A stretch of DNA of 64,000 bases from Nitrospirota bacterium (lineage in GTDB: Bacteria > Nitrospirota > UBA9217), in NCBI GenBank assembly GCA_963790205.1, contig CAWBNQ010000001.1, positions 544,001 to 608,000 of the forward strand. The letters are read 5' to 3'. The translations under genes and the position numbers were made by a program. Each line of letters begins with the position of its first letter. Position 1 is the stretch's first letter. Below are positions 4,771 through 57,873 of the stretch, one piece after another. The notes under the pieces were generated by a model. It ran no database searches, had not been told where the DNA came from, and saw only the letters and a list, made by a program, of their open reading frames with translations.

Positions 4771-5319
4771 TTACGCGGCCGATCGCTTCCGGACCACATC
4801 GAGTTCCGTCTTTACCGTCACCGGGCGGGAGAGTGTTATCCCGACTGGCGACGTTTTCACCACGTGGTCGTGCAGATCCCGCAGCATTCGGATATCTGCG
4901 TCAGCGTCGATCTGTACCCGCGCGAGCACGTTCTTAAACCCCGGAAGCCTGTCCATGTTGAGGTCAGCCGGAGGTTCAAGTCCAAGAAAACCGGGAAGGT
5001 CTATTTCACCCTCGATTTCTATCCGAAGCTTTTGGATTTTGATCCCCCGCACCGCGGCGTTCATGGCATAGCCGATGGCAAGGCATGCGCCGTAAGCCTG
5101 AAGCACCATCTCAACAGGGTTGGCGGCCGTGTTCGTTCCGACAAGCATCTCCGGCTCGTCGGCACGAAGCGTGAAGCCCCGGGACTCCGTTTCCACCCGG
5201 AACCCGTCCTTCCACGTTGCCGCCGCCTTCCAGACCGTTTTGCCCGTTTCCCAGTTCTTCTTGACCGACTCGACGACATTCAAAAGTTTTTCTGTTTCCA
5301 GTCCGTTGATTATCGGCAT
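4771..5319 (-). CDS. OsmC/Ohr-family protein
   Basis: ADEPEMLVGTNTAANPVE...GAC...GEIDLPGFLGL...TSPV; GGAGG RBS upstream. Confidence 0.8.
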   Translation of the reverse strand: MPIINGLETEKLLNVVESVKKNWETGKTVWKAAATWKDGFRVETESRGFTLRADEPEMLVGTNTAANPVEMVLQAYGACLAIGYAMNAAVRGIKIQKLRIEIEGEIDLPGFLGLEPPADLNMDRLPGFKNVLARVQIDADADIRMLRDLHDHVVKTSPVGITLSRPVTVKTELDVVRKRSAA

Positions 5320-5736: not shown

Positions 5737-5752
5737 TGGCATCGCAAATGCA
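5737..5752 (+). promoter_or_regulatory. putative sigma54 (-24/-12) promoter upstream of the methyltransferase cluster
   Basis: TGGCATCGCAAATGCA, with GG at 5738-39 and GC at 5750-51 separated by exactly 10 nt. Confidence 0.45.
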
Positions 5753-5766
5753 GAGAACTACCTGTC

Positions 5767-6096
5767 ATGAAGAACATCATTCTCTGCTCCTCAAATCCCA
5801 TATTGATAAAAAGCCTTTACGGGATCCTGAGAGACGAAGGGTACGCGGTAGAAACCATCGAGCACCCGGCCTTTGCCGTACAGAAGGTCATGAACGCACA
5901 ATACGACTTTATCATCATAGACTCTGAACCGTTCGGCCTTTCCGCGGAAGATGCGGCAGAGATCATCAAAACCGTCGCGCCCGGGATGCCCATCCTGTTC
6001 GTCGGCGGCGACCGCGAAAAGGAGCACGCCCCGGCTGTGGAGACGCCGATCGATCTTGAAAAGTTCAAGCGGACGATCCACAGTTTCGCAGTCTGA
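5767..6096 (+). CDS. stand-alone, atypical response-regulator receiver-domain protein
   Basis: MKNIILCSSN...YDFIIID...PILFVG...TPIDLE: CheY-like pattern lacking the acidic pocket and the conserved Lys. Confidence 0.6.
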   Translation: MKNIILCSSNPILIKSLYGILRDEGYAVETIEHPAFAVQKVMNAQYDFIIIDSEPFGLSAEDAAEIIKTVAPGMPILFVGGDREKEHAPAVETPIDLEKFKRTIHSFAV

Positions 6097-6140
6097 AGAA
6101 TGAAGGTTTTGACATTCCATTCCTTACGAAGGGAGACGTT

Positions 6141-7169
6141 ATGAAACCGAAAGAAGTGATCCTCAAGGCCTTTGAGGGGGGCAAGCCCGAGCGGCTTCCC
6201 GTGACCCTCTTCGGAGCGGGCATGTGGAGCATCAAGGGCTACGACACATCGTTCGAGGCCCTTTCTCACGATGCGGACAAGATGAGCGCCATGCTCGTGG
6301 ACATGAGCCCGAAGCTCCAATGCGACGTCGTTTATGCGGGCTCGGGATACAACAACTTCCATGCCTCGGCCCTCGGCGGAAAGATCAAGTTCCGGGAGGT
6401 CGGCGCGCCCGACCTGGAAAATCACTTCGTCTCTTCCGAGGAGGACCTTGCGAAGCTCAAGATCACCGATCTCGACAGGGACGATACCATCAATACCGTG
6501 AAGAAGGCGCTGCGCCTGACCAAGGCGAAAATAGGCGACACCTACGCCATGACCCTGACCGCCTGGGGACCCTTTACCCTCGGCGCCCGGCTCGTGGGCG
6601 AGGAGACCATGATGAAAGCCACGTTCAAGAAACCCGCTTTCGTCGAAAAGGTCGTTGACTTCGCCACCGACGTCCTGATCCACCTCTACGAGCCTCTCGT
6701 CAAGGACGGAACGCTCGAAGTCATCAGCCTGGCCGATCCCACGGCCTCGGGCGACCTCATCTCGCGCAAGCAGTTCGAGAAGTTCGCCGTGCCGTACCTT
6801 AAGAAATTTACCGACTGGGCGAAATCCAAAAACGTACATACGCTTGTCCACATCTGCGGCAACACCACGGACCGGCTGGACCTCTTCCCGAACACCGGCG
6901 CCTCCTGCATCAGCCTGGACCACAAAACGGACATGGCGAAGGCGAAGCAGACGCTCCACGGGAAGATGTGCTTCGGCGGGAACGTTGACCCCGTGAAGAT
7001 CATGCTCCAGGGCTCGGTCCAGGACGTGGAACACGCCTGCAAGGACGTCATCAAGATCGCCGGCAGTGACGGCGGCTTCGTGCTCATGCCGGGTTGCGAT
7101 ATCCCGCCGACCGTGCCCTATGACAATATCAAGAAGTTCATCCAAACGGCGCATGAATGGAAGATGTGA
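6141..7169 (+). CDS. MtaA/CmuA-type methylcobamide:thiol methyltransferase (URO-D fold)
   Basis: GPFTLG, ADPTASGDLIS, Zn ligands VHICG and PGCDI. Confidence 0.85.
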   Translation: MKPKEVILKAFEGGKPERLPVTLFGAGMWSIKGYDTSFEALSHDADKMSAMLVDMSPKLQCDVVYAGSGYNNFHASALGGKIKFREVGAPDLENHFVSSEEDLAKLKITDLDRDDTINTVKKALRLTKAKIGDTYAMTLTAWGPFTLGARLVGEETMMKATFKKPAFVEKVVDFATDVLIHLYEPLVKDGTLEVISLADPTASGDLISRKQFEKFAVPYLKKFTDWAKSKNVHTLVHICGNTTDRLDLFPNTGASCISLDHKTDMAKAKQTLHGKMCFGGNVDPVKIMLQGSVQDVEHACKDVIKIAGSDGGFVLMPGCDIPPTVPYDNIKKFIQTAHEWKM

Positions 7170-7334
7170 TCGCACGGCTTACGCAGGGGAGACCCCTTGT
7201 GGTCGCCCGCATTGAAAAGGAGGTGAGCGAATTCAGGTCAATGAGAGGAGGTCGATTCCACGGGAGTTTTAGAGGAGTTGAAAAAAATGTTTTCCCGGAC
7301 ACAGAAAGCGTCCGGGCAAGGGGAGGAAGGAAAA

Positions 7335-7778
7335 ATGGCTGATAAGAAAATGACAGTGGAAGAAGTAAACGAGTACATGAAGAAGCAGTGCGGTTTCGTA
7401 CCGCGCATGTTCCAGATCATCAACACCGTAACGCCCGAGCCGGGCAGGACCTTTGCTGATTTCTACGCCAGCATCTTCGGCGACGGGGCCCTTTCGCGCA
7501 AGGTGAAGGAGCTGATGTTCATGTCCGGCGGAGTGGGCTACTGCTCGCCCCGCTGCATCATCCACGTGATCCCGGCGATCAACGCGGGGGCGACCACGGG
7601 CGAGATCTTCGAGGCCGCATCGGTCGGCATGATCCTCGCGGGCTTCGTGCCCGGCGGGCCCGGCATTCCCTACGCCTTCGAGTACGCGTTGAAGTGCCTC
7701 GACATCGAAGCCAAGTACCGCAAGGGCGAGAAGTGGGAATACCTGCCGCAGCCCAAGTTCGACCACGGCGTGTTCTAA
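7335..7778 (+). CDS. carboxymuconolactone decarboxylase / AhpD-like protein
   Basis: GFVPRMF...GALSRKVKEL...CSPRCIIH...AGATTGEIFEA. Confidence 0.75.
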   Translation: MADKKMTVEEVNEYMKKQCGFVPRMFQIINTVTPEPGRTFADFYASIFGDGALSRKVKELMFMSGGVGYCSPRCIIHVIPAINAGATTGEIFEAASVGMILAGFVPGGPGIPYAFEYALKCLDIEAKYRKGEKWEYLPQPKFDHGVF

Positions 7779-7788
7779 ACACAATACG

Positions 7789-7824
7789 AGGGGGAGCGTT
7801 TCGAAGGCTCCCCCCGTTATTTTG
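7789..7824 (+). terminator. intrinsic terminator-like hairpin
   Basis: GGGGGGAGC-loop-GCTCCCCCC followed by GTTATTTT. Confidence 0.6.
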
Positions 7825-7960
7825 CAATCATAAATTTTTAATTCATTTTGTCACAGAGAACGCAGCGGTAAGACATTAAATTCGTAAGAAGTTTTTCACT
7901 GTGAGCCTGTATATGCGAACCTTCGCTTGTGGTTAAAAAAGATTTTTAAAGGGGAACCTG

Positions 7961-8908
7961 ATGTTTCGATTTAAACAGGAGCAAAAAATATTTACCCTCG
8001 ACGGCATCAAGGTGGGCGGTCAGCCGGGAGAGAACCCGCCGCTTCTGATCGCGTCCATGTTTCACAACAAAGACCGGATCGTAACGGACCGGAAGGGCAA
8101 CTTCGACCGCGTAAAGGCCGCGGAGCTCATCAAGACGCAGGAAGCGCTTTCCGCCTCAACGGGCATCCCGTCCATGGTGGCCATGGTGGCAAACTCGCCG
8201 GAAGAAGCGAAGATCTACATAGACTTTTACCGCGAGACCACGAAGATGCCCTTCGGCATCGACATGTGGGTCGCGGAAAAGCGGGCACAGGCCACGGAGT
8301 ACGTGGCCAAGCTGGGATTGCAGGACCAGTTCCTGTATAACAGCATCACGCCCTGGGACAAGGACATCAAAGGCCAGGTCCAAAAATTGAAAGACCTCGG
8401 GATCAAGCACGTCGTGGTCCAGGCTTTCGACGACGCCGATCAGTCCCCGCGCGGGCGTCTTAACTCATTGGAGAAGATCCTCGCGCAGGGCGCCGATAGT
8501 TTTGAGACCATCATCGTCGATACCTCGGTCATGAACCTGCCTGCCACATCGTTCTCGCTCGTCGCGAACCGTATGATCAAGGAGAAGCTCGGCCTTCCCT
8601 GCGGCGGCGCCTACTCGAACGGCACGCATATGTGGAAAGAGGCGAAGACCATCTGGAGCCTCGACGGGTTCAAAGCGATGGATGCCGTGGTACAAGGCAT
8701 GGCCTCGGCGATCTGGAGCGATTTCAATTTCTACGGCCCCATCGTCACGGCGCCGCGGATCTTCCCGGCAGTGGCGGCGGCCCAGATCCTGCTTTCCACC
8801 CTGGTGTACGATGAAACACAAAAGATCTCCGACAATGAGAACGTCCCGATCAAGAAATACTTTTCGGACTTCCTCGGAAAGCTGACGGCTGGAGCAGCGA
8901 GGAAATGA
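7961..8908 (+). CDS. MtrH/MtgA-family pterin (H4folate/H4MPT):corrinoid methyltransferase
   Basis: MFRFKQEQK...VGGQPGENPPLLIASMFH...YNSI...DF.FYGPI...PAVA pattern of MtrH; no other mtr subunits in the window. Confidence 0.8.
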   Translation: MFRFKQEQKIFTLDGIKVGGQPGENPPLLIASMFHNKDRIVTDRKGNFDRVKAAELIKTQEALSASTGIPSMVAMVANSPEEAKIYIDFYRETTKMPFGIDMWVAEKRAQATEYVAKLGLQDQFLYNSITPWDKDIKGQVQKLKDLGIKHVVVQAFDDADQSPRGRLNSLEKILAQGADSFETIIVDTSVMNLPATSFSLVANRMIKEKLGLPCGGAYSNGTHMWKEAKTIWSLDGFKAMDAVVQGMASAIWSDFNFYGPIVTAPRIFPAVAAAQILLSTLVYDETQKISDNENVPIKKYFSDFLGKLTAGAARK

Positions 8909-9192
8909 ACATTACCGCGACGCGGATCGACAAAGGGGGCCCCGATGATAGTTCACTCTCAGACAGTGGAAAATTGGCTGGCAACGTTGACCGAGGTTAA
9001 AGGAGTTTGCGGCAGGGTCATAGAACGTTCCCCCGGAAGGAAAGCGGAAAAGGCGGAGGGAGAGCGGGAAGGCGAGAAAAGGTCGTGTTGATCGATTTCT
9101 TCCGGCGTATTCCGTATCAAATGTTTTGCTTTCCTCCGCGTCATCCGGGGCGAACATGAATTTGATACCATATTCCTTTTAAAGGAGGCAGA

Positions 9193-10227
9193 ATGTCAAC
9201 GACAACACTAACAGCGCGGGAACGGGTGCTCAAGCTCTTCGCCGGGGATGCGGTAGACCGGCCGCCGTGCTTCAGCGGCATGGGCAACGTGACCACCGAA
9301 GGGCTGAAATCCCTGAACCAGAAGTTTGCGGCAACGCACCTTGACGCAAAGATGATGGCCGCGGCCGCGGCCTCGACCTACAAGCTGTTCGGGTTCGAGT
9401 GCGCGGTGGCCCCTTTCGACCTCTGCATCGAGGCAGAAGCCATGGGATGCGAGATCAACGTGTACGCCCATTCCGAGGACCTGCTGTACCCCACGATCAA
9501 GAAAAAACTGATCCACAACGAGGCCGAAATGGAGATATCCATCCCATCAGGCCTCACCAAACGCGGCAGGGTCCCGCTCATGAAGGAGGCGATCACGCTC
9601 ATAAAGAAGGACATCGGTGGTGAAGCGCCGGTCGGCTCCTACGTCCTGGGGCCCTTCACGCTTGCCGGCCAGGTCATGGAGCTGAACGATCTGTTGAAGC
9701 TGTCCTTCAAGAAGCCGGACAAGATCGGCAAGCTCCTGGACCAGCTCTCGGACGTGATCATCCAGGTCGCGGGAGAGTACGAAATGGCCGGTGTGGACTT
9801 CATCACCGTCCGCGAGATGGGAGCAACGTCGGACGTGCTCTCTCCCCGCGTGTTCAAGAGCCTCATCCTGCCCTATCTGAAAAAGATCTTCGAGAAGCTG
9901 ATGGTGCCGAGCGTGCTCCACATCTGCGGAAAAACGAATGACATCGTCCCCTTTATGGCCGAAAGCGGCGCGAAAGCGATCAGCGTGGACCAGAAGAACG
10001 ATCTTGCCGAGACGCGCAAGAAGCTCGGGCCCAGGGCCCTCGTGTTCGGGAACTACGACCCCTACAACGTTCTCGTGGCCGGCACGCCGGACCTGGTGCG
10101 CCAGACCATTAAGAAATGCATGGACGACGGCGCCAGCGCGGTCTGGCCCGGGTGCGACATCTGGCCCACGGTGCCGGCGGAGAATTTCAAGGCCATGATG
10201 GACGAAGTCAGAAAGTACAGGAGGTAA
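9193..10227 (+). CDS. second MtaA/CmuA-type methylcobamide:thiol methyltransferase
   Basis: APFDLCIEAEAMG, GPFTLAG, Zn ligands LHICG and WPGCDIWP. Confidence 0.85.
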   Translation: MSTTTLTARERVLKLFAGDAVDRPPCFSGMGNVTTEGLKSLNQKFAATHLDAKMMAAAAASTYKLFGFECAVAPFDLCIEAEAMGCEINVYAHSEDLLYPTIKKKLIHNEAEMEISIPSGLTKRGRVPLMKEAITLIKKDIGGEAPVGSYVLGPFTLAGQVMELNDLLKLSFKKPDKIGKLLDQLSDVIIQVAGEYEMAGVDFITVREMGATSDVLSPRVFKSLILPYLKKIFEKLMVPSVLHICGKTNDIVPFMAESGAKAISVDQKNDLAETRKKLGPRALVFGNYDPYNVLVAGTPDLVRQTIKKCMDDGASAVWPGCDIWPTVPAENFKAMMDEVRKYRR

Positions 10228-10231
10228 GCCC

Positions 10232-10924
10232 ATGGTAACCGAAGAGAAGAAAAAAGAGCTGTTGGCGAAATTACGCAGCGCCGTGATATCGTATGACGAG
10301 GACACCTCCAAAGAGGCGGCCCAGGAAGCGCTGGACGTGGGCATGGACGCGAACGACGCCATCTTCAACGGCCTCGTCTCCGGCATGGTGGAGGTCGGGA
10401 AGATGTTCGAGGCCCAGGAATACTTCGTTCCGGAGCTCCTCATGTGCGCCGACGCGCTCTATGCGGGCCTGGACATCCTGAAGCCCCACGTGACGCAGAT
10501 GGACCTCGGGGTGAAGGGTTCGGTCGTGATCGGGACCGTGGAAGGCGACGTGCACGACATCGGCAAGAATATCGTAAAGATGATGTTCGATGTGGCGGGT
10601 TTCACGGTCTATGACCTCGGCCGCGACGTGCCTCTCGACAAGTTCGTGGCCGAGCAGCTCCGGACCGACTCGGACCTGGTCTGCCTCTCAGCCATGATGA
10701 CCACCACCATGACAGGCATGAAGAAGGTCATCGACGACCTCCGGGCAAAGAACCCCAACGTCAAGATCATGATCGGAGGGGCGCCCGTGTCCCAGGACGT
10801 GGCCGACAAGTACGGCGCGGACGGGTATGCCAAGGACGCGACCAATGCATTGAAGGACGCGATCAACATGATCGCCTCGCTCAAGAAGATGAAGGACGAA
10901 GCTGAAGCGAGGAAACGCGCATAA
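10232..10924 (+). CDS. methyltransferase corrinoid protein (MtaC/MttC-like)
   Basis: Cap domain (YFVPELL) plus B12-binding motif EGDVHDIGKNIV...SAMMTTT...MIGGAP. Confidence 0.92.
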   Translation: MVTEEKKKELLAKLRSAVISYDEDTSKEAAQEALDVGMDANDAIFNGLVSGMVEVGKMFEAQEYFVPELLMCADALYAGLDILKPHVTQMDLGVKGSVVIGTVEGDVHDIGKNIVKMMFDVAGFTVYDLGRDVPLDKFVAEQLRTDSDLVCLSAMMTTTMTGMKKVIDDLRAKNPNVKIMIGGAPVSQDVADKYGADGYAKDATNALKDAINMIASLKKMKDEAEARKRA

Positions 10925-10948
10925 ATGCGATCGAGGTGGATGTATTAC

Positions 10949-11000
10949 CTCCCTCGCCTCGATCCTCGCCCCAGGGGGAGAGGGCCGGGGTGAAGGGGCT
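10949..11000. repeat. intergenic palindrome of the CCCTC...GAGAGGG...GTGAGGGG type
   Basis: ccctcgcctcgatcctcgccccagggggagagggccggggtgaagggg. Confidence 0.5.
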
Positions 11001-11016
11001 TTCGAGTGAAAATAAA

Positions 11017-11653
11017 ATGAAGATCGAACTCAAGACAGAGCTGCTCGGCCACGGCGCCGCAGTCGTGGGCATTGCCGGGCTCCGGGGCCACATGAGTGGA
11101 GAGCTCGCCCACCTGGACCAAGCCGTGTCCATCGGCGTGGACCGGAAGCTGAACGAGGACACGCTGAGCCTCCTCATGAAGCTCCAGAAGCGCGCGGTGC
11201 GCTATCTGAAGTCCCGGGGGTACCGTACGCTTGGCCATCCCGCCGGATTCGGACCGGAAGCAGGGGACGTTCGTATCGAAACTGTACTCCCTGTTCAACC
11301 ACAAGATGGCGGCCACCTCGGCCGGGCTGGGCTGGATCGGGAAGAACGGCCTCCTCATCAGTGCGGACTACGGTCCCCGGTTGTCTCTGGCCACGGTTCT
11401 GACCGATGCGCCGCTCAATGCGGATGCGCCCATGGAATACAGCCTCTGCGGCGACTGCGTCCTGTGCATGACCCACTGCCCGTCAAAGGCGATCACCGGC
11501 TCGGAATGGTCAAGGTCCGCGCCGTTCGTCGAGCTCGTGAGGCTTTCCGTCTGCAGGTCCCACAAGGCAACGAAGCGTGCCACGGACGGAAAGCCCAACT
11601 GCGGGCTGTGCATCAACATATGTCCCTATGGGAGAGAGAACAAGCGCCAATGA
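11017..11653 (+). CDS. QueG/reductive-dehalogenase-like cobalamin Fe-S protein (frameshift near 11233)
   Basis: N-part GAAVVGIAG...YLKSRGYRTL joins AIPPDSD...HKMAATSAGLGWIGKNGLL...YGPRLSLATVLTD...CGDCVLCMTHCP...C...CGLCINICP if one G is removed. Confidence 0.75.
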
Positions 11654-11741
11654 ACAAACGTTTGGAATTTGATATCTGAAATTTGAACATTATTTGAGAT
11701 GTGTGATTTGAGTTTTTGAATTTCGGCAGTCTGGAGGAAGC

Positions 11742-13718
11742 ATGTCTAAGAAACATAAAGTCATCTTTCAGCCCTCGGGCAGGCGCGGCGAAGTGGAGGA
11801 AGGCAAGACCATCCTCGAGGCCGCCCAGTCTTTGGGTGTGGATATCGAGGGGCTCTGCGGGAACAAAAAGGTCTGCGGCAAGTGCAAGGTCCGGATCGAA
11901 GAGGGGTATTTCGAGAAGGACAACATCGAATCGGGCATGGCCCACCTCTCGCCGCTGACGGAGGCGGAGAAAAAACACATAAAGCCCGAGGACGGCCCCG
12001 GCATGAGGCTGTCCTGCACCGCCGAGGTCCATGGCGACATCAAGGTCTTCGTACCCGAGCGATCGCGGGCAGGGAAGCAGGTCGTCAGGAAGGCCGCGAA
12101 GGAGCTCACGATCAAGCTCGACCCGGCTATCAGGAAATACAACGTGGAACTCGTGCCCCCGACGCTCCACGACATGACCACCGGAGACCGGGAGCGGGTC
12201 TTGAAGTTCCTCGAGGACGATTACGGACTTACAGAGCTTACGTTTGACTACCTGGTCCTGAAGGACCTTCAGGATGTTCTGCGCAAAGGCGGCTGGAAGG
12301 CAACGGTCACGGTATGGATGGACAAGGAAATCATTAAAGTTGAGTCTGGCTTCGTCGAAGCAAGCTATGGTCTTGCCGTGGACATCGGCACCACCACCTG
12401 CGTGGGCTACCTCACGGACCTGAACACGGGCAAGGTCGTGAACACCGAGTCGATCATGAACCCCCAGGTGCCCTACGGCGAGGACGTGATGTCGCGCATC
12501 ACCTTTGCCATGAGCAACCCGGGCGGCCTCGAGACCATGCAGAAGGCGATCATTCAGGGCCTGAACGAGATCATCGCGCGGGTGGTATCGGAGATCATCA
12601 AAGACGGCCCGGATCCCGGCCGCGTGATCGACGACCTCACGATCGTATTCAACACGGCCATGCACCATATCTTCCTCGGCTTGAACCCCGAATATATCGG
12701 CCGCTCGCCCTTCATCCCCGCGGTCCAGAGCTCCCTCGACATCAAGGCGCGCGACCTGGGCCTCAAGATCAATCCCTCGGCCTACATCCACGTACTGCCC
12801 ATTGAGGCGGGTTTTGTGGGCGCCGACAACGTGGGCGTCTTGATCGCCGAGGAACCCTATAATCAGGATGAGATGGTGCTGATCATCGACATCGGAACGA
12901 ACGGCGAGCTGCTCCTGGGCAACCGGAACAAGGTCTGCTCCACCTCGTGCGCAACCGGGCCGGCCTTTGAAGGCGCCCAGATCAAGTTCGGTATGCGCGC
13001 GGCCCCGGGCGCCATCGAGACCGTCGAGATCGATCCCGAGACCAAAGAACCGCGCTACAAGGTCATCGGCAAGGCGGACTGGCACACGCACATCGAGGCG
13101 GTGAATGCCAAGGGCCTCTGCGGCTCGGGCATCATCGGGGTCGTGGCGGAAATGTTCAAAGCCGGCGTCATCGACAAAAGCGGCAGGTTCGTCATGGACC
13201 TCGGCACGCCGCGGGTCAGGAAGGACGCTGACGGCAAACCCGAGTACGTGCTGGCCTGGGCGGCCGAGACCTCCATTGGCCAGGACATCACCATTACCCA
13301 GGGCGACGTACGGGCGCTGCAATTGGCGAAAGGGGCCCTCTATGCGGGCGCAAAGCTGATGATGAAGCGGCTCGGCGTCACCAAGCTCGATCGCGTGATC
13401 CTGGCGGGCGCCTTCGGGAGCCACATCGACAAGGTGGCTTCGATGACGCTCGGCATGTTCCCGGACTGCCCCATCGACATGGTCTACGCCGTGGGCAACG
13501 CTGCCGGAGACGGCTCGCGCATGGCGCTCTTGAACCGGGACAAGCGGCGCGAGGCGAACGAGCGGGCGCGGTGGGTCGAGTTCGTCGAGATCGCCACGGA
13601 CCCGGCGTTCGAGAAAGAGTTCATGCAGGCGATGCACATCCCCCACATGAAGGACAAGTTCCCGAATTTGAAGGAGCTGCTCGAGAGGTCGAGGAGCCCC
13701 GTGGAGATTAAAGCATAG
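11742..13718 (+). CDS. ASKHA-domain reductive activator of corrinoid proteins (RACo/RamA-like) with N-terminal 2Fe-2S domain
   Basis: CGNKKVCGKC...RLSC, AVDIGTTT, NPQVPYGEDVMSRI, DIGTNGE, ATGPAFEG, GLCGSG, LAGAFG, GNAA. Confidence 0.92.
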   Translation: MSKKHKVIFQPSGRRGEVEEGKTILEAAQSLGVDIEGLCGNKKVCGKCKVRIEEGYFEKDNIESGMAHLSPLTEAEKKHIKPEDGPGMRLSCTAEVHGDIKVFVPERSRAGKQVVRKAAKELTIKLDPAIRKYNVELVPPTLHDMTTGDRERVLKFLEDDYGLTELTFDYLVLKDLQDVLRKGGWKATVTVWMDKEIIKVESGFVEASYGLAVDIGTTTCVGYLTDLNTGKVVNTESIMNPQVPYGEDVMSRITFAMSNPGGLETMQKAIIQGLNEIIARVVSEIIKDGPDPGRVIDDLTIVFNTAMHHIFLGLNPEYIGRSPFIPAVQSSLDIKARDLGLKINPSAYIHVLPIEAGFVGADNVGVLIAEEPYNQDEMVLIIDIGTNGELLLGNRNKVCSTSCATGPAFEGAQIKFGMRAAPGAIETVEIDPETKEPRYKVIGKADWHTHIEAVNAKGLCGSGIIGVVAEMFKAGVIDKSGRFVMDLGTPRVRKDADGKPEYVLAWAAETSIGQDITITQGDVRALQLAKGALYAGAKLMMKRLGVTKLDRVILAGAFGSHIDKVASMTLGMFPDCPIDMVYAVGNAAGDGSRMALLNRDKRREANERARWVEFVEIATDPAFEKEFMQAMHIPHMKDKFPNLKELLERSRSPVEIKA

Positions 13719-13962
13719 GTTCAAAAAATATTCACCACAGAGTACGCAGAGAAGAACAGTAAGCTGATTGTTTTCGTTTCTCTGCCATACAGCACTATCT
13801 TTCTCGTCTTCCCCTGTGACCTCTGTGGTTAAAATTGATTTTTAAAAGAATTATCACCGGGCCCCCCCGGTGGTAATGGGGTTGCAGGGGCAGGGGGCCG
13901 GCACTTTCCCGGGGCCTTCCTGCCCCTTATACCTTAGGTTTTCAAAAAGACGAGTTCTCTCT

Positions 13963-14277
13963 ATGACAACGGTAATAGTAAACTCAGGGGCCTGCGGGTA
14001 TTCCGTCACGATCAAGGCGGAAAAGGGCAAGGACGGGAAGATCGCTCTTTCTCTCACGACGGACTGCGAGATGGTAACAAAGATGCTCGAGGACATCGCC
14101 GTTGTCGACCGTTTTGCCGCATTGACCGGGTTCCAGAACAATCCCGTGTACCGGTCCGCGTCAAAACACTTGAAACACGCGGCCTGCGTTGTGCCGTCCG
14201 CTATTTTGAAGGCCATCGAGGCCGAGGCGGGCTTGAATGTGCCGAAAGACGCGGTCATACGCTTCGTAAAAGAGTAA
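13963..14277 (+). CDS. small Cys/His-rich putative metal-binding protein (DUF6951-like)
   Basis: NSGACG...TDCE...HAACVVPSAILKAIEAEAGL..PKD. Confidence 0.6.
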   Translation: MTTVIVNSGACGYSVTIKAEKGKDGKIALSLTTDCEMVTKMLEDIAVVDRFAALTGFQNNPVYRSASKHLKHAACVVPSAILKAIEAEAGLNVPKDAVIRFVKE

Positions 14278-14341
14278 GCAAGACCATGGCCGACATCCGG
14301 ATATTTCGCGTGTTATACTTGCAGTGTCATCTGGTGAATGC

Positions 14342-15040
14342 ATGACTACCCTGGGAAAGATACTGGTTGTCGCGGCATACTGCGTGTACGCAGCGTTCTG
14401 GATACGGTTTTTCGCGCATTTGCTCGTGTGGTGGAGGGCCGCAAGGCGGCTTTCGGCGGGGGCCCCGGCGCCCGCCCCCCGATCGCGGTTGAAGGCCTGG
14501 GCGCTCACGGCCTCGGACGTGTTCCTTTTCGGACGGCTTCTGGTCGTGAACCCCGCGCTCTGGATCGGGGAGTGGGTCTTTCACGTTTCCTTTCTCCTGG
14601 TGCTCCTGCGGCATTTGCGGTATTTCCTGGACCCCGTGCCCGCGTGGGTATGGAGCGTTCAGTTCGCGGGCGCGATCGCGGGCTATATCCTGCCGCTCTC
14701 CCTCGTATACATCCTCGTCATCCGGCTGCTCACTGCACGGGAGAAATACGCTTCCCGCGCGAACGTGTTCCTCCTGGGCCTGGTGCTCGTCATCAGCTCG
14801 ATCGGGCTCATCATGCACGTGTGGCTCACGCCGAACCTCGTGGAGGTGAAGCTCTTCGCCCTCGGCTTGGCATGCTTCAAGCCGTCGCCCGCGCCGGGGA
14901 GCTTGTTGTTCATGGCGCACTTTATCCTGGTCCTGGTCCTGATTCCTTTTCTGCCCACGCACATCTTCACCGCGCCGCTCGTGATGATGGAGGCGAGAAA
15001 GAGGGAGCAGGCGCTCCACCTGGTGATGCATGAAGAATAA
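14342..15040 (+). CDS. NarI/HdrE/DsrM-like di-heme b membrane anchor
   Basis: About 5 TM helices with His residues in FHVSF..RHLRY, AHF and PTH; overlaps the downstream CCG protein. Confidence 0.75.
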   Translation: MTTLGKILVVAAYCVYAAFWIRFFAHLLVWWRAARRLSAGAPAPAPRSRLKAWALTASDVFLFGRLLVVNPALWIGEWVFHVSFLLVLLRHLRYFLDPVPAWVWSVQFAGAIAGYILPLSLVYILVIRLLTAREKYASRANVFLLGLVLVISSIGLIMHVWLTPNLVEVKLFALGLACFKPSPAPGSLLFMAHFILVLVLIPFLPTHIFTAPLVMMEARKREQALHLVMHEE

Positions 15041-16232
15041 ACGTTCATTCACGGAAGAGCTCCTGCCCCGGCAGGTCATCGAGCTCGACGCCTGCACCCA
15101 GTGCGGCGAGTGCTTGAAGCATTGCCCGGTCCAGGACGTTGCCGGGAATCCCGCGGTCTCGCCGCCCGAGAAGATCCGCATGTTCCGCGAGTTCATCCGC
15201 GCATCCGACGGTCTCAAGGCCACGCTCTTCGGCCCCCGCGAGGTTGACCGCAAACGGCTCGAGGACTTTACCAGGGCGGTGTATGAGTGCACGACCTGCG
15301 GCGCCTGCGGCCGGAAATGCCCGGTCGGGATCTTCACCCAGCGGCTCTGGCCCATGCTCAGAAAAGAAATGGTCAAGCGCGGACTCGGGCCCATCGGGAT
15401 CCAGGCGAACCTGCCCAAGGCGATCGAGCATTCCGGCAACCCTTATGACAAACCGGCGGCTGAACGCTACCAGCCCTGGTTCCCTGAACAGGTGAAGCTT
15501 GCAGAGCGGGCCGACATCGCCTATTACGCGGGATGCACGGGCGCTTACGAGGCGCAGCCCATGGTCAAGGGGGACGTGCTGGCATTACATGCGATCGGCG
15601 AGCCCTTTACCATGCTTCCGCCGGAGGAAGAGGTCTGCTGCGGCTTTCCTCTTTTTATTACGGGCCAGCACGACCTTCTCAAGGACCTTACGAAGAGGCT
15701 CGTGGAGGGATACAAGGCAAAGGGAGTGAAGGTCCTCGTCTGTTCCTGCCCCTGCTGCGTGAACATCATGACCAGGGACTGGCCGCTGTTCTACGGAGAG
15801 GCGCTCCCGTTCAAGATCCGGCATATCACGCAGTACGTGTCGGACGCGCTCTCAACAGGGAAACTCAGGCTGACGAAGGCATTAAACGAATCCGTCATCT
15901 ATCACGACCCCTGCTACCTCTCCCGGGGGGTCGGAGTGATCGAGGAGCCGCGCACGGTGCTCAAAAGCATCCCCGGCCTCACGCTCCTGGAGTTCGAGCG
16001 CCACGGGCTCAACTCCCGCTGCTGCGGCTCCGGCGGGGCCGCGAGGAAGGTCTTTCACGAAAACGCCATTGCCATGGGCAGGCTGACGATCGACGAGGCT
16101 GTGGCAAAGAAGGCGGACCGCCTGATCCTCGCCTGCCCAGCCTGCTACGCAAAGGTGAACGAGGCCATGCAGGGACACAAGAACCAGATACGGATCACGG
16201 ACATCATGGAACTGGTGAGCGGGTTGATTTAA
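15030..16232 (+). CDS. HdrD/DsrK-like heterodisulfide-reductase catalytic subunit
   Basis: Two CxxCxxCxxxCP motifs and two CCG domains (GCT..CCG..CPCC; HDPC..CCG..CPAC). Confidence 0.88.
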   Translation: MKNKRSFTEELLPRQVIELDACTQCGECLKHCPVQDVAGNPAVSPPEKIRMFREFIRASDGLKATLFGPREVDRKRLEDFTRAVYECTTCGACGRKCPVGIFTQRLWPMLRKEMVKRGLGPIGIQANLPKAIEHSGNPYDKPAAERYQPWFPEQVKLAERADIAYYAGCTGAYEAQPMVKGDVLALHAIGEPFTMLPPEEEVCCGFPLFITGQHDLLKDLTKRLVEGYKAKGVKVLVCSCPCCVNIMTRDWPLFYGEALPFKIRHITQYVSDALSTGKLRLTKALNESVIYHDPCYLSRGVGVIEEPRTVLKSIPGLTLLEFERHGLNSRCCGSGGAARKVFHENAIAMGRLTIDEAVAKKADRLILACPACYAKVNEAMQGHKNQIRITDIMELVSGLI

Positions 16233-16255
16233 AAGATGTACTAAGGCTATTTGGT

Positions 16256-16330
16256 CGTCATTCCTGCGAAAGCAGGAATCCAGGATCTTATTGAAAACTC
16301 ACTGGATTCCGGGTCAAGCCCGGAATGACG
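16256..16330. repeat. REP-like double hairpin (GTCATTCC...GGAATCCAG / CTGGATTCC...GGAATGAC)
   Basis: cgtcattcctgcgaaagcaggaatccag ... ctggattccgggtcaagcccggaatgacg. Confidence 0.75.
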
Positions 16331-16352
16331 GCGTAAGGGAAAGCAAAAAATC

Positions 16353-17612
16353 ATGAGCCATTTTTCGATTCAATGCAGAAAGTGCGGCAAAACCCTCGAA
16401 CACGCCTACTGCGCCTTCTGCGAACACTGCAAGGACGCGCTCCTCGTCACGAATTATCACGACACCAGGTTCGCGGAACGCGAAGCCGACGGTATCTGGA
16501 GGTTCAACTGGCTTCCGGTCCATGGCTCGCAGTTCTCCCAGCCGGGTCCGCTCGTATACCGATCGCAGCGCCTCGCGGAGCGCCTCGGCCTCGAAAAGCT
16601 CTACATTGCCTTCAACGGGTACTGGCCCGAGAAGGGAGCCTTGCTCGAAACGTGCACGTTCAAGGAGTTCGAAGCAGCGGTCGTGCTCCAGAACGCCCGG
16701 GAGAACGGCGTCGAGGGACTGATCGTGGCCTCGGCAGGGAACACGGCGCGGGCCTTCGCGCACCTCTCGACCGTAACGGGATTTCCGGTCGTCATTGTCG
16801 TGCCCCGGATGTGCCTCGAGGAAATGTGGTATCTCGAACGCTCGAGCGCGGTACCGACGCTCGCCGTTGGGGACGGGGACTACGCCGACTCCATCGACGT
16901 TGCCAGGAAGATCGCCCTGGCCCGGGGCTTTCCCTTCGAGGGAGGCGTAAAGAACATCGCCAAGCGGGACGGCCTCGGCATCGTGATGCTCGAAGCAGTA
17001 TCGAAGATAGGCAGGCTGCCGGACCATTACGCCCAGGCCGTGGGAAGCGGCACCGGCGCCATCGGCGCGTGGGAGATGGCCGAGCGGTTCGTGAAAGACG
17101 GCAGGTTCGGACCGCGGTTGCCGATCCTCCACTTGGGACAGAACCTTCCCTTCGCTCCCATGGTCCATGCCTGGGAGCGCCGGAGCCGGACGCTGTTCCC
17201 CGAGGACCTGAGGCCGGAGCTGATCGGTCAGATCACGACGCGCGTGCTCTCAACGCGCTATCCCGCCTACTCGGTCCAGGGCGGCTTGTACGACGCCCTC
17301 ACGGCAACGGGCGGAAAGATGTACGGCATCGAGAACGACGCCGTCTACGCCGGCATGGAGCTTTTCCACGAGGCCGAGGGCATCGACATCGTTCCCGCCT
17401 CGGGCGTGGCTGTTGCCGCGCTCGGCGAAGCCGTACGCACAAACGCTATCAGGAAGAACGAGACCGTGCTCTTGAACATCACCGGCGGGGGCGAGGCGCG
17501 GCTCCGGCAGGCGAAGAAGACCTACGCTGTTGAGCCGAAGTTCATATCCAAGAACGCCACTGACCAAGAGATAGAGGAGCTTCTGTGCCACGCCCTGAAG
17601 AAGAACTCATAA
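16353..17612 (+). CDS. cysteate synthase (threonine-synthase-like PLP enzyme; O-phosphoserine + sulfite)
   Basis: N-terminal Zn ribbon; FNGYWPEKGA..TCTFKEFEA (PLP Lys), ASAGNTARAF, EGGVKNIAKRDG, QAVGSGTG, RYPAYSVQGG, LLNITGGG; adjacent to comDE. Confidence 0.85.
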   Translation: MSHFSIQCRKCGKTLEHAYCAFCEHCKDALLVTNYHDTRFAEREADGIWRFNWLPVHGSQFSQPGPLVYRSQRLAERLGLEKLYIAFNGYWPEKGALLETCTFKEFEAAVVLQNARENGVEGLIVASAGNTARAFAHLSTVTGFPVVIVVPRMCLEEMWYLERSSAVPTLAVGDGDYADSIDVARKIALARGFPFEGGVKNIAKRDGLGIVMLEAVSKIGRLPDHYAQAVGSGTGAIGAWEMAERFVKDGRFGPRLPILHLGQNLPFAPMVHAWERRSRTLFPEDLRPELIGQITTRVLSTRYPAYSVQGGLYDALTATGGKMYGIENDAVYAGMELFHEAEGIDIVPASGVAVAALGEAVRTNAIRKNETVLLNITGGGEARLRQAKKTYAVEPKFISKNATDQEIEELLCHALKKNS

Positions 17613-18721
17613 CCATCCTCAAAAAGCACGGGGTTGACTTCACCGCCTCGCTTCCCTGCGAGAAGATCAAGACCCTCCTCGAGATAGTGGGTCTGTCTTT
17701 CTTTCACGTACCCCTGACAAGAGAAGAAGAAGGCGTCGGCATCTCCGCCGGGGCCGCGCTCTCGGGCAGAAGACCAGCCCTCTTCGTCCAGAGCTCGGGG
17801 CTGGGGAACATGATCAATGCCCTGCTTTCGCTCACGCAGTTCTACGAGCTTCCGCTCGCGCTGTTCGTCAGCAGGCGGGGGGTCTACAAGGAAAAGATCG
17901 AGGCCCAGGTCCCCATGGGTCAGAAGCTCCCCGGAATCCTCGCGGGCGCGGGAATCACGTACTCAAAAATAAACACAAAAAACGACATCAACCTGATGGA
18001 CCGGGAACTTCAGGAGGTCTACGGCAAAAACAGGATACATGCGTTCCTGATGAGCCCTGAAGTGTGGGAGGGGTCGAAGTGCGGGGGAGCAGATGCAGGA
18101 AGCAAGATACAGAATAATCAGGATGTTGTTCATCGTCCGCCGTCCGTCGTCCATCATCCATCGCGCGCCACCCTCACCCGGTACGATATCATCAGAATCC
18201 TCGCGCCGTATCTTGAAGGTAAGGCCGTAGTGAGCAATCTCGGCTGGCCCTCCAAGGAACTCTACGCCGTAAAACACCAGCCCTCGAACTTTTACATGCT
18301 CGGAAGCATGGGCATGGCCACGCCCATCGGTCTCGGCATTGCGCTCACGTCATCGAAGGAAATCATCGTGATCGACGGCGACGGCAGCCTGCTCATGAAT
18401 CCCGGCACGCTGGCAACGGCCGCCGACCGTGCGCCGCGAAATCTCACGATCGTCGCGATCGACAACAACGCCTACGGCTCCACGGGAAACCAGCCGACGT
18501 TAACGGGGACATGCGTTGATCTCGAAGCCGTCGCGCGCGGGTTCGGGTTCAGGAATACCGTTAAGGTTTCGAGTGAAGAGCAGATTGTGGAAACGATGAA
18601 ACAGCGAGAAGGTTTGACGTTTATTCACGCCCTGGCGATTCCCGGGAACAAGGACGTGCCGAATATCCCCGTGCATCATCTGGAGATCAAAAAGCAGGTG
18701 CAGGAGTTTCTGAAAAAGTGA
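17585..18721 (+). CDS. comDE: fused sulfopyruvate decarboxylase alpha/beta (ThDP-dependent)
   Basis: ComD part LPCEK..TREEEGVGISAG..QSSGLGNMINALLSL; ComE part SNLGWPSKELY..NFYMLGSMG..GDGSLLMN..DNNAYGSTGNQPT; GTG start after GAGGAG. Confidence 0.82.
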   Translation: MPRPEEELITILKKHGVDFTASLPCEKIKTLLEIVGLSFFHVPLTREEEGVGISAGAALSGRRPALFVQSSGLGNMINALLSLTQFYELPLALFVSRRGVYKEKIEAQVPMGQKLPGILAGAGITYSKINTKNDINLMDRELQEVYGKNRIHAFLMSPEVWEGSKCGGADAGSKIQNNQDVVHRPPSVVHHPSRATLTRYDIIRILAPYLEGKAVVSNLGWPSKELYAVKHQPSNFYMLGSMGMATPIGLGIALTSSKEIIVIDGDGSLLMNPGTLATAADRAPRNLTIVAIDNNAYGSTGNQPTLTGTCVDLEAVARGFGFRNTVKVSSEEQIVETMKQREGLTFIHALAIPGNKDVPNIPVHHLEIKKQVQEFLKK

Positions 18722-21923: not shown

Positions 21924-22520
21924 CTACAATTTTCCCGTCTTTTGATATTCCTCGACATAAACCTTGATTGCCCGAAGGATGATCCAGTCCATCGTAACAC
22001 TATTGTTCTTTGCAATTTGAATGAGCGCGTCGACCAGCTCCTTATCGATCGTAGGCTGATCAACAGGTTGAGGGGTGGTAGTCTCTTCCGGCGGCTTTAT
22101 CTCTTCACCGGGCATCCTTTTCTGATGCTCTCTGCGAAGAAGGTCCATAAGCCCTCTTACATCACCGCCCTGGATCGCTTTTTTTACCTCCTCCGGCACC
22201 TCTTCCGCGGAAGGTGTCTGACTTGAGGCCGCGTTTTCCGGAGGCAGCGGCTGCTCCCTGTTCTCAGGCGAATGCGAGAAAGCGGGAGCGCCTCCCGGGG
22301 GCATCATCCCCGTCATGCCCATCATCATGGTGGCCAGGTTTCGCGCGTATTCGTTATCCGGCATTTCCTGTTTCAGAAATTCCTCGAGCTTTCCCTCTGC
22401 CATGGCCGCGGCCATGCGGTCCGCGAGCAGCGCGCCCTGTTCCTCCTCCTGCCCAAACTGTTTTTTTCTTCCGAAGGCCGTGTTGGGCGGCTTCGGCAAT
22501 GGTTTTTCCTTCTTTGACAT
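21924..22520 (-). CDS. hypothetical protein, possible C-terminal ribbon-helix-helix
   Basis: Genome-typical ORF; C-terminus TIDKELVDALIQIAK...DWIILRAIKVY. Confidence 0.65.
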   Translation of the reverse strand: MSKKEKPLPKPPNTAFGRKKQFGQEEEQGALLADRMAAAMAEGKLEEFLKQEMPDNEYARNLATMMMGMTGMMPPGGAPAFSHSPENREQPLPPENAASSQTPSAEEVPEEVKKAIQGGDVRGLMDLLRREHQKRMPGEEIKPPEETTTPQPVDQPTIDKELVDALIQIAKNNSVTMDWIILRAIKVYVEEYQKTGKL

Positions 22521-53216: not shown

Positions 53217-53870
53217 AACAGAACGCAGGGCACTTTTCTCACGAAGAGTGCCCTGTTCTTTTTTGTATGTATCGTTGGTAACTGCAAGTAATTGAAACGG
53301 ATTTCTGAACACGGGATTCAGCCGATCATCGCTCCAGGAAGAGTTCGAGTACACAAAACTCAGAATCTTTCGCTTAGTCGTCACACTTTCCTTTTTATAC
53401 ATATTTGCGGCATTTTGAGCGAGTTCTATGAGCTGTACGCCGTCTTCGATATAGACCCGATTCGCGTTTTGATAGTTTTCGATTTCCCGTAAAATGCCTG
53501 CCTGTTCCCGCCGCCATGCTTCATGCTTACTGTCAAAGAAATCCTGAGATATCTTACCGTCGAGCTTGTCGAGATACATAGCATCGATGCGCTCTTGGAT
53601 TACTCGGCTTTTCTGATGGAGGGAAGCTATTTTCTCCTCATGGTATGTTTTTTCGTCCCGGTGGCTTTGTTTCAAGGCTACCACAACGCAGTCCAGGATT
53701 TCTTGATCCACCTGAATACGCTTTAGAGACTCCACGAACTGCCGATCCACTTCCTCTTCCCGGACATAGGTCGGAGGACACTTACCCTTGTTACCTGTAC
53801 AGTGGTAATAAATATATTTCCCCTTTTTCTTTTCAGCGACCATAGCGCAGCCACAATAGCCACAGACAAG
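53175..53870 (-). pseudogene. C-terminal remnant of a large serine recombinase reading into tRNA-Asn
   Basis: LVCGYCGCAM..YIYYHC..C zinc ribbon, coiled coil, MYLDKLDG; ends WLPKQDSNL inside the tRNA; catalytic domain absent. Confidence 0.8.
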
Positions 53871-55789: not shown

Positions 55790-55841
55790 GGGCAAATTAA
55801 AGACTTCCGATGCCCCTTTGCACTTTTTATGAATTATGTAA

Positions 55842-56405: not shown

Positions 56406-56435
56406 TGTGCACGCTAGCAGTTTATGATAAAAATC

Positions 56436-57862: not shown

Positions 57863-57873
57863 CGACCTTTCCG

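Follow-up and report, generated by a model that had tools for sequence, protein, structure and literature searches.

Why would a bacterium that lacks methyl-coenzyme M reductase (MCR) keep methanogen-type genes for the synthesis of a precursor of coenzyme M (CoM) in one operon with genes for corrinoid-dependent methyl transfer? CoM is known from methane- and alkane-metabolising archaea; aerobic alkene oxidisers have it too, made by an unrelated route (PMC9457059). The question is raised by a stretch of 64,000 nucleotides, called the window here, at positions 544001-608000 of contig C1 of a Nitrospirota genome (G000; 4.34 Mb in 14 contigs, 98.3% complete, 4.0% contaminated). From its sequence, an original prediction had described 13 co-oriented genes as a self-contained module that makes CoM or a related sulfonated thiol, uses it as a methyl carrier linked to the folate pool and recycles its disulfide at the membrane. 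All 13 genes were found on the + strand, between positions 5767 and 18721 of the window. They belong to a conserved, apparently undescribed system of known enzyme families, found in bacterial and archaeal anaerobes without MCR, that combines methanogen-type sulfonate synthesis with corrinoid methyl transfer. No publication describing the operon was found in the literature searched; most subscription journals lay outside that search, so the novelty is provisional. The operon is not mentioned in the main text of PMC5812927 or in those of its supplements that were searched.

We favour, tentatively and with a little less than even confidence, a reading in which the operon is under sigma54 control and serves a soluble methyl exchange that depends on a corrinoid and links tetrahydrofolate (THF) with a sulfonated thiol of the cell's own making (CoM or a close analogue), in anaerobes with Dsr and Wood-Ljungdahl pathways and no MCR.

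Conservation of the operon and its host

The bacterial housekeeping context and the similar coding style claimed for the operon both hold. The window contains dnaA, dnaN, gyrBA, rnpA and yidC, and the nine operon genes scored have a GC content of 0.72-0.86 at third codon positions, the genome median being 0.74. The tetranucleotide distance of the operon lies at the 85th percentile of 326 genome windows. As predicted, the window holds no mcr gene, and a search of the whole genome for mcrA also gave no match. The host does have Dsr and Wood-Ljungdahl genes, for which the prediction had proposed a scan: dsrA (split), dsrB, dsrC and dsrMKJOP, the latter on contig C14, and a THF-type Wood-Ljungdahl set (fhs, metF-like, acsE, acsCD, acsB, fdh) about 100 kb from the operon.

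Gene order was compared in the best 80 of 405 cysteate synthase relatives, a few of which share a genome; nearly all are labelled Nitrospirota and they are at most 89% identical to the query. The gene for the fused sulfopyruvate decarboxylase ComDE follows that for cysteate synthase in 76 of the 78 loci with enough DNA, and a CCG-domain gene precedes cysteate synthase in 70 of 76. Genes for the methyltransferase MT2, its corrinoid protein, a RACo-type activator and an MtrH-like enzyme lie upstream in 45 of the 46 loci that have enough DNA to tell, and accompany the pair in the archaeal locus L273 as well; the synteny on which the prediction depended is thus conserved.

These counts refute the idea of an artefact or of a recent, functionless archaeal insert, whose probability we regard as close to nil. 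Insertion sequence (IS) elements left of the operon and frameshifts in the assembly would suit it. Against it, the order is kept in dozens of independent assemblies, where eight of the 80 loci also run on to a yidC-like gene (named by resemblance) as in G000, the composition is native, and the Nitrospirota cysteate synthases form one clade (support 100). Contigs of relatives in one freshwater-sediment metatranscriptome (X1, share 0.06) moreover cover 30 of 30 bins of the region, a weak sign of expression, as they come from relatives only and neither rank genes nor prove transcription. Nor is the contig chimeric, a possibility raised with the original prediction, given the same gene order in relatives' assemblies and the native composition.

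We sampled 201 Nitrospirota genomes that are at least 85% complete, kin among them not being independent. Cysteate synthase occurs in 41, MT2 in 45, an NMT1-like gene (described below) in 44, acsB in 115, dsrB in 114 and COG1900 in eight. All 41 cysteate synthase genomes hold MT2 and the NMT1-like gene, and 39 hold dsrB; acsB is present in 42 of the 45 MT2 genomes. The methanogen-type route is therefore found in about a third of the sampled Dsr/Wood-Ljungdahl Nitrospirota (41 genomes against the 114-115 with dsrB or acsB), and such Nitrospirota are common in soils, sediments and groundwater. No cultured member of the phylum is among the matches listed (three lists of best 80 loci and a cluster look-up), which is not proof of absence.

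The system is modular, since its parts occur separately across genomes. Core A consists of MT2, the corrinoid protein, RACo and MtrH; module B of MT1 (a second methyltransferase), an AhpD-like protein, often OsmC, DsrE or TusA, and an Hdr-like pair; and module C of cysteate synthase, ComDE and the NMT1-like protein. The core extends beyond Nitrospirota, to Bacillota (Desulfofundulus thermosubterraneus, Desulfotruncus arcticus, Desulfosporosinus sp. I2, Candidatus Formimonas warabiya and metagenome-assembled genomes, MAGs), an Armatimonadota MAG, Anaerolineae, Archaeoglobi and Hydrothermarchaeota. JdFR-42, whose mtrH loci are listed in 10.1101/390617, carries MT2 (L268). The archaeal locus L273 (Candidatus Hydrothermarchaeales) unites genes for DUF6951, MT1, CCG, NarI-like, AhpD, MT2, corrinoid, RACo, MtrH, cysteate synthase, ComDE and NMT1-like proteins, in an order different from that of the window and with 42-66% identity; mcrA and COG1900 were not found in its genome (1.3 Mb, probably incomplete). 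Four Archaeoglobi-type genomes without mcrA have the methyl-transfer and cysteate synthase-comDE parts at separate sites, and mcrA is present in none of the five archaeal carriers tested. The closed genome G287 has the methyl-transfer module with TusA, AhpD, OsmC, DsrE and an ABC importer, and cysteate synthase-comDE elsewhere. Importers of the NitT/TauT type are encoded in several loci of Nitrospirota and Archaeoglobi and in those of two Anaerolineae genomes, where a search for cysteate synthase gave no match. Four Bacillota loci (L100, L103, L112 and L114) place the core after MtaB and after second genes for a corrinoid protein and an MtaA-type enzyme; a methyl-thiol relay to THF would require such a layout. 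As the Bacillota tested show no cysteate synthase or ComDE, their thiol would be a different one or imported.

Sulfonate synthesis and its last step

The identities predicted for cysteate synthase (16353..17612, 419 residues) and ComDE (17585..18721, 378 residues, overlapping the former by 28 nucleotides) are borne out. Both proteins pass curated cut-offs (TIGR03844, 474 against 325 bits; TIGR03845, 181 against 148; TIGR03846, 226 against 221.5, a narrow margin for the ComE half) and group with archaeal orthologues in trees, the cysteate synthase joining methanogen-type orthologues and that of L273 in a single clade (support 96). An archaeal cysteate synthase used as query retrieved two loci only. 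Threonine synthase models reached at most 89 bits with the former protein, and phosphonopyruvate decarboxylase 209 of a required 312 bits with the latter, so both identities were rejected.

The adjacent cysteate synthase and fused comDE genes resemble the type 2 (phosphoserine) CoM route of Methanosarcina acetivorans (MA3297, MA3298 and MA3299 for cysteate synthase, ComDE and MMP16; PMC12068725). In contrast to that route, the one in the window belongs to a bacterium without MMP16, L-ASST and MCR, is joined to a methyl-transfer operon and is accompanied by the NMT1-like gene. Its first part very probably carries flux: cysteate synthase would join sulfite to phosphoserine, a general aminotransferase would form sulfopyruvate, and ComDE would convert this to sulfoacetaldehyde. 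Genes for the aminotransferase and for phosphoserine supply are not in the operon; in M. acetivorans the aminotransferase step is non-specific (PMC12068725).

The last step is where the module proves not to be self-contained. MMP16 is the main CoM synthase of M. acetivorans, and its absence may be made up for by L-ASST or by sulfide reacting abiotically (PMC12068725). The MMP16/ComF model TIGR03287 yielded only ferredoxin-motif matches in G000, COG1900/L-ASST (PF01837) and ComA (PF02679) gave none, and search controls behaved as expected. Neither ComF nor L-ASST occurs in any of the 41 cysteate synthase genomes, the eight COG1900 carriers of the phylum sample lying outside them. The gap counts against a home-made thiol, together with the points gathered in the next section. 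The abiotic route with sulfide is available to sulfate reducers. The only known bacterial CoM synthesis and use, that of xcbA-E in Xanthobacter autotrophicus (PMC9457059), differs in starting from phosphoenolpyruvate with a ComA-type enzyme and in serving aerobic alkene and epoxide metabolism rather than methyl transfer.

Sulfoacetaldehyde would probably be converted to a thiol, by an enzyme unrelated to ComF. A doubtful candidate for this enzyme is the NMT1-like protein (313 residues; G000:C1:536300-537238, 7 kb left of the window), which the original prediction had overlooked. It is a cytoplasmic protein, without a signal peptide. Its gene adjoins comDE in 13 of the 80 loci, in L273 and in four Archaeoglobi-type loci. 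Nine residues are invariant in 31 sequences (H13, C74, H79, E81, H121, H216, C257, H300 and H305), and the predicted model (mean predicted local distance difference test score, pLDDT, 92.8) matches the taurine- and alkanesulfonate-binding proteins TauA and SsuA first and the enzyme Thi5 next. The ESM Atlas added no function. This protein was also found in 26 of 151 Halobacteriota (methanogen-type genomes), 24 of them with cysteate synthase, and so need not replace ComF; its role could be that of an accessory binder or sensor rather than of a synthase.

Two further candidates for the last step were weakened. The Hdr-like pair is missing from the loci L023, L296 and L328, and the CCG gene of G029 occurs without cysteate synthase; the QueG-like gene, with that for DUF6951, occurs in Bacillota loci without cysteate synthase. 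As a separate observation, locus L037 (3340-12697) has cysteate synthase-comDE flanked by genes for a sulfite-reductase-like protein, TusA, OsmC, DsrE, ThiF, JAB and ThiS (a sulfur-carrier set); G000 encodes a 78% identical ThiF at C3:868105, beside a thrC-like gene.

Methyl transfer, the Hdr-like pair and the competing explanations

The two URO-D-fold methyltransferases, MT1 (6141..7169; PF01208) and MT2 (9193..10227), both have the predicted H-x-C-G ... C zinc motif, and the H-x-C...C ligands are present in all 39 MT2 and all 16 MT1 rows of a FastTree phylogeny of 106 proteins, among which no MtsA or MtpA was identified. The MtaA-type identity originally proposed did not hold for either protein. 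MT2 forms a clade of its own (39 rows, five phyla, support 98) within the radiation of MtaA and MtbA, and the clade of MT1 (16 rows, support 99) is more distant; they nest in neither the MtaA nor the MtbA group, whose reference labels were confirmed by NCBIfam. Both also miss the MtaA and MtbA equivalog cut-offs (NF040654 and NF041608; MT2, 247 of 400 and 180 of 600 bits; MT1, 150 and 160), which the references pass. MT2 does pass two broader models, that of the methylcobalamin:CoM subfamily (NF004889, 272 against 244 bits) and that of MtaA/CmuA (TIGR01463, 250 against 235); MT1 passes none (TIGR01463, 179). The best PDB match of MT2 is MtaA (4ay7). A second MT2 paralogue (~51% identical) is present in six of the 45 MT2 genomes; in L393 (G142) and L394 (G058) it adjoins a CO-dehydrogenase-like gene (named by eye), a two-component system and CobW-like genes.

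Six residues of the MtaA pocket have been named from an AlphaFold 3 model (PMC13618148), with a numbering that matches our reference exactly. T28, Q29, R70 and Q94 are kept in 7/7 MtaA-like and 13/13 MtbA-like rows. MT2 has M, G, V and Y at these positions, together with an arginine at the position of MtaA A201 in 38 of 39 rows (by alignment, Arg207 in the MT2 of the window); MT1 has no basic residue at positions 70 or 201. If R70 of MtaA binds the sulfonate of CoM, as we infer, MT2 may bind an anionic thiol in another way, which its arginine would fit. By the same sequence comparison, MT1 would bind an uncharged thiol and is a candidate entry enzyme for a small uncharged methyl donor.

The operon shares the URO-D fold, the zinc site and a cognate corrinoid protein with activator with the MtaA/MtbA, MtsA, MtpA and MtsD/F/H systems of Methanosarcina. 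It differs from them in having no MtaB/MttB-type entry enzyme, and MT2 differs from MtaA and MtbA in its scores, its clade, its pocket and its coupling to an MtrH-like enzyme. The corrinoid protein (10232..10924, 230 residues; PF02310 and PF02607) scores 208 of 215 bits with TIGR02370. The MtrH/MtgA-family methyl-corrinoid:pterin methyltransferase (7961..8908) passes only an MtrH-family subfamily model (NF002142, 329 against 287 bits), falling below the cut-offs of the MtrH equivalog TIGR01114 (169 against 271) and of MtgA; its PDB matches are MtrH and MtgA. It is probably THF-linked. The operon contains no mtrA-G genes, no genome-wide search for mtrA having been made. The activator (11742..13718, 658 residues) is a RACo/AcsV-type ATP-dependent corrinoid reductive activator (Fer2, PF17650, PF17651 and PF14574; NF040756, 473 bits). 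The folate link of the original prediction gains support from the THF-type Wood-Ljungdahl pathway of the host, from FolD genes that stand within the operon in 8 of 80 loci, from MetF genes that adjoin it in 7 of 50, and from an MtrH-MT2 fusion (P0001), whose halves are 47% and 57% identical to the MtrH-like protein and MT2 of the window.

In the mechanism that we propose, MT2 would shuttle methyl groups between the thiol and the corrinoid protein, the MtrH-like enzyme would move them between the corrinoid and THF, and RACo would maintain Co(I), giving a counterpart of the Mtr reaction without an ion pump; that MT2 uses this particular thiol has about an even chance. MT1 may load the same corrinoid from a small uncharged donor, for which methanethiol or dimethyl sulfide (DMS) would be the most likely choice, although we hold this step with some doubt. 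Methyl-THF would then be oxidised or assimilated via the Wood-Ljungdahl pathway, the methyl-thioether acting as buffer and sink, and an HdrDE-like pair with AhpD- and OsmC-like proteins would set the thiol/disulfide state against the quinone pool.

The pair in question consists of a NarI/DsrM/HdrE-like membrane anchor (14342..15040, 232 residues; weak NF038037 match, 61 bits), overlapping the next gene by 11 nucleotides, and an HdrD-like CCG protein (15030..16232, 400 residues) with a 4Fe-4S dicluster and two CCG domains (PF02754 twice; best NCBIfam match TfrB, 182 of 385 bits). The sequence shows the full cysteine pattern in both CCG domains, which is not diagnostic, being common to GlpC/TfrB-type proteins. 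The CCG protein is 38-39% identical to HdrD-type proteins and 23% to the DsrK of the host. Its best matches of this type occur in three methylotrophic-methanogen-type genomes, as ~414-residue proteins encoded after a NarI-like gene; we take them to be HdrD from gene arrangement, NCBIfam having given no HdrD model. The arrangement of anchor and ~400-residue dicluster protein is that of HdrDE in Methanosarcinales, and the HdrD-type proteins are the closest archaeal matches in the five genomes searched; the window differs in that its host has no MCR to form CoM-S-S-CoB. Of the HdrDE claim, the closeness to HdrD-type proteins is borne out. A FastTree phylogeny places the CCG clade as their sister (92), a sisterhood that was lost in IQ-TREE. 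It is reasonable to suppose from these comparisons that the pair works like HdrDE. An identity as DsrMK was rejected (96 of 400 and 61 of 300 bits), the true dsrMKJOP lying on C14. In the Anaerolineae locus L122 (11434-17661) the genes of the orthologous CCG/NarI pair are linked with others for Rieske, cytochrome b and cytochrome c proteins, a hint that thiols may be oxidised towards a chain of high potential. Several Thermodesulfovibrionia-type loci, among them L053, L124, L141, L142 and L171, have another, distinct NarI/CCG pair (29-31% identical) inserted in the operon or beside it.

Several observations weigh against methyl exchange with a home-made sulfonated thiol. Four Nitrospirota genomes have MT2 without cysteate synthase; G029 and G036 (one genus, 94-97% complete) have MT2 and neither cysteate synthase nor the NMT1-like gene, the locus of G029 being otherwise the same operon. 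The MT2 core occurs without cysteate synthase in 26 of 29 non-Nitrospirota genomes tested, including 25 of 25 bacterial ones; three Archaeoglobi of the 29 have cysteate synthase (one over the cut-off) and full-length ComDE. ComA is encoded in three of five Bacillota, not near the module in the regions read. Conversely, G303 and G311 have cysteate synthase-comDE-NMT1 and no MT2 match. The four pocket residues T28, Q29, R70 and Q94 are kept in 0/39 MT2 and 0/16 MT1 rows, and MtpA of M. acetivorans is an MtaA homologue that may refuse CoM (10.1101/548461). There is a single corrinoid protein, so MT1 and MtrH could bypass any thiol. As to the Hdr-like pair, three loci (those named above) are without it, IQ-TREE (24 rows) does not resolve the CCG clade as sister to HdrD, and the CCG gene of a Geoglobus locus groups with DsrK in that tree.

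Such findings lend some weight to an unlikely alternative with two co-regulated, chemically separate jobs. MT1 and MT2 would be entry enzymes for methyl-sulfur substrates, for example methanethiol or DMS and the anionic methylmercaptopropionate, feeding THF directly, while the sulfoacetaldehyde branch would provide a redox buffer, CoM or some other sulfonate, and the Co(I) enzymes would be protected by this buffer together with AhpD, OsmC and the Hdr-like pair. This would account for the occurrence of each half alone, for the loss of the CoM-pocket residues and for the thiol-peroxidase-like genes within the module; CoM raises peroxide resistance in M. acetivorans (PMC12713407), and MtpA is an entry-only homologue of MtaA (10.1101/548461). 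It does not sit well with the co-occurrence in 41 of 41 genomes or with a physical linkage kept in two domains. Moreover, one would not look for a general redox buffer at the end of a methyl-transfer operon, nor for its absence from 70-odd other Dsr/Wood-Ljungdahl Nitrospirota.

The flow might also be outward, which we consider improbable: methyl-THF made from CO2 or CO would pass its methyl group via the corrinoid to CoM, sulfide or methanethiol, as with MtsF/CmtA of M. acetivorans, yielding methyl-CoM, methanethiol or DMS as an overflow of methyl groups or electrons or for sulfide detoxification. Transfer from methyl-pterin to a thiol is the downhill direction in Mtr, and the CO-dehydrogenase-like gene, named by eye, beside the second MT2 paralogue of G142 and G058 would also fit. 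MtsF prefers methyl-tetrahydromethanopterin as donor (cited in 10.1101/548461). However, a dedicated importer and a sensor kinase with a sigma54 activator suit substrate use, and the Bacillota core follows methanol-entry genes. On methanol with cobalt, induction has been seen for a similar operon of Desulfofundulus kuznetsovii 17T (Desku_0050-60; PMC5770442, PMC10907483), which includes MtrH, an ASKHA activator and two genes of the MtaA type. The genes of its downstream part (B12-binding, ASKHA activator, MtrH, PNPOx-like, MtaA/CmuA) are ordered as in the D. thermosubterraneus locus L106, and the MtaA-type gene of L106 encodes an MT2 56% identical to that of the window. In contrast to the operon in the window, that of D. 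kuznetsovii has MtaB/MtaC, and its relatives tested have no cysteate synthase or ComDE.

Dehalogenation of haloalkanes, as by the mec (dichloromethane) and cdm (chloromethane) cassettes with a thiol as nucleophile or trap, is very improbable. Like the operon, the mec, cdmBCA and MtgBCA systems of bacteria end in a pterin-binding methyltransferase (MecF, MtgA), and mec also joins URO-D methyltransferases, a corrinoid protein and a two-component system to it (PMC9768040); the uncharged MT1 pocket and weak matches of the QueG-like gene to reductive dehalogenases would agree. These systems differ in having other gene sets without sulfonate biosynthesis or an Hdr-like pair, and the two papers on them name neither cysteate nor Nitrospirota in the passages searched. 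Candidatus Formimonas warabiya has both, its locus L101 (RACo, MtrH, MT2, corrinoid) differing in gene set and lengths from the mec cassette of that strain; identity with mec was set aside on gene content against the published table.

We thus retain methyl exchange between a home-made sulfonated thiol and THF as the preferred reading: the operon belongs neither to the MtaA/MtbA group nor to the complete type 2 CoM pathway, and plausibly works like them. If a CoM-like thiol does carry methyl groups here, the biology of this cofactor would extend beyond MCR, anoxic habitats would have an unrecognised bacterial sink or source of methylated sulfur, and cysteate synthase, comDE and 'mtaA' would no longer be safe methanogen markers in metagenomes; the operon would also supply a small set of candidate proteins for the conversion of sulfoacetaldehyde to a thiol. 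A bolder version, which we think quite unlikely, is that MCR-less Nitrospirota, Hydrothermarchaeota and some Archaeoglobi make true CoM, that the phosphoserine route has a third ending in which the cytoplasmic protein with the sulfonate-binding fold replaces ComF, and that methyl-CoM is central to a soluble oxidation of methanethiol and DMS (or of scavenged methyl-CoM) via folate with sulfate as acceptor. CoM would then have its first role as a methyl carrier in bacteria, the degradation of methyl sulfides by sulfate reducers would have genes assigned to it, and the 'two MtaA + MtrH' operons of bacteria would be methyl-thiol relays.

Promoter, regulators and other features

The operon opens with a gene for a stand-alone receiver-like protein (5767..6096, 109 residues; PF00072, E 2e-6, below the gathering score), which is also the first operon gene in relatives. 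A sigma54-type (-24/-12) promoter on the + strand (5737..5752) lies 15 nucleotides before its first ATG, so the gene is probably leaderless. The motif occurs 27-33 nucleotides before the receiver start in 33 of 43 loci, compared with 6 of 860 control windows, and most of the remaining ten loci have near matches. A scan for sigma70 promoters and terminators gave counts at chance level. A PAS-GAF-PAS kinase is encoded upstream in 18 of 50 loci and a sigma54 activator in 24 of 50. In G000 these two genes (C1:537.4-541.1 kb) are part of a block 3-8 kb left of the window (C1:536300-541100; L093:6301-11762) with the NMT1-like gene and a second CMD/AhpD-like gene. The NMT1-like/kinase/activator block adjoins the operon in relatives; in G000, IS elements and DUF3300/DUF2950 genes intervene.

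The unit was therefore drawn too small in the original prediction, as the promoter, the leftward regulators and NMT1-like gene and a divergent gene for an OsmC-like protein (4771..5319, - strand, 182 residues; PF02566, E 6e-16), which had also escaped notice, belong to it. The OsmC-like protein is 56% identical to that encoded inside the Geoglobus methyltransferase locus L160, and OsmC, with or without DsrE, lies upstream of the operon in many relatives. The AhpD/CMD-like protein (7260..7778, + strand; PF02627) has 172 residues from ACG 7260 or 147 from ATG 7335. It has an invariant C70-x3-C74-x2-H77 and travels with MT1; of 550 homologues at E<=1e-10, the 120 matches listed are 72-100% identical.

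The gene for the QueG/reductive-dehalogenase-like 2x[4Fe-4S] protein (11017..11653; weak TIGR00276 and TIGR02486 matches) is read in two frames, owing to one extra base near 11232 relative to the six closest relatives, a frameshift overlooked before. Since the gene is intact in 52 of 53 relatives' loci and dsrA is split in the same assembly, an assembly error is probable; an RNA contig of one relative has no extra base. More generally, dsrA (G000:C14:63.7-64.9 kb), an oxidoreductase gene and a formate dehydrogenase alpha gene look split (L087:2475-3927; 18005-L088:673), which points to indel errors.

For the small Cys protein DUF6951 (13963..14277, 104 residues; PF22263), only DUF6951 clusters were among the ESM Atlas matches and no function was gained. 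A ~516-residue methyl-accepting chemotaxis-like gene (by eye) follows RACo/DUF6951 in nine of the 80 loci (L016, L026, L058, L059, L064, L074, L076, L077 and L079). Three more RACo/AcsV-type activator genes lie at 60449-61927 of the window, C1:796.6-798.5 kb and C4:11.5-13.4 kb of G000; the last two have similar neighbours (speD/speE) and may reflect a duplication or a contaminating contig. In Candidatus Formimonas warabiya (G208:C1:5257-5268 kb; L389), three tandem ComA-family paralogues, of five in the genome, stand amid PrpF/aconitase-like and transporter genes.

Beyond comDE, a 198-residue protein without Pfam or NCBIfam match (21924..22520, - strand) is encoded after comDE in 33 of 80 loci; its membership of the operon is uncertain. 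By eye, we saw a GC-rich hairpin after the AhpD-like gene (7786-7815) and inverted repeats resembling repetitive extragenic palindromes (REP) between genes (13735-13830 and 16255-16335), a REP-associated transposase being encoded at 977-1849. Finally, positions 53870-59431 and 62379-63449 hold a truncated SNF2/DrmD-like helicase and several IS481/IS110 transposases.

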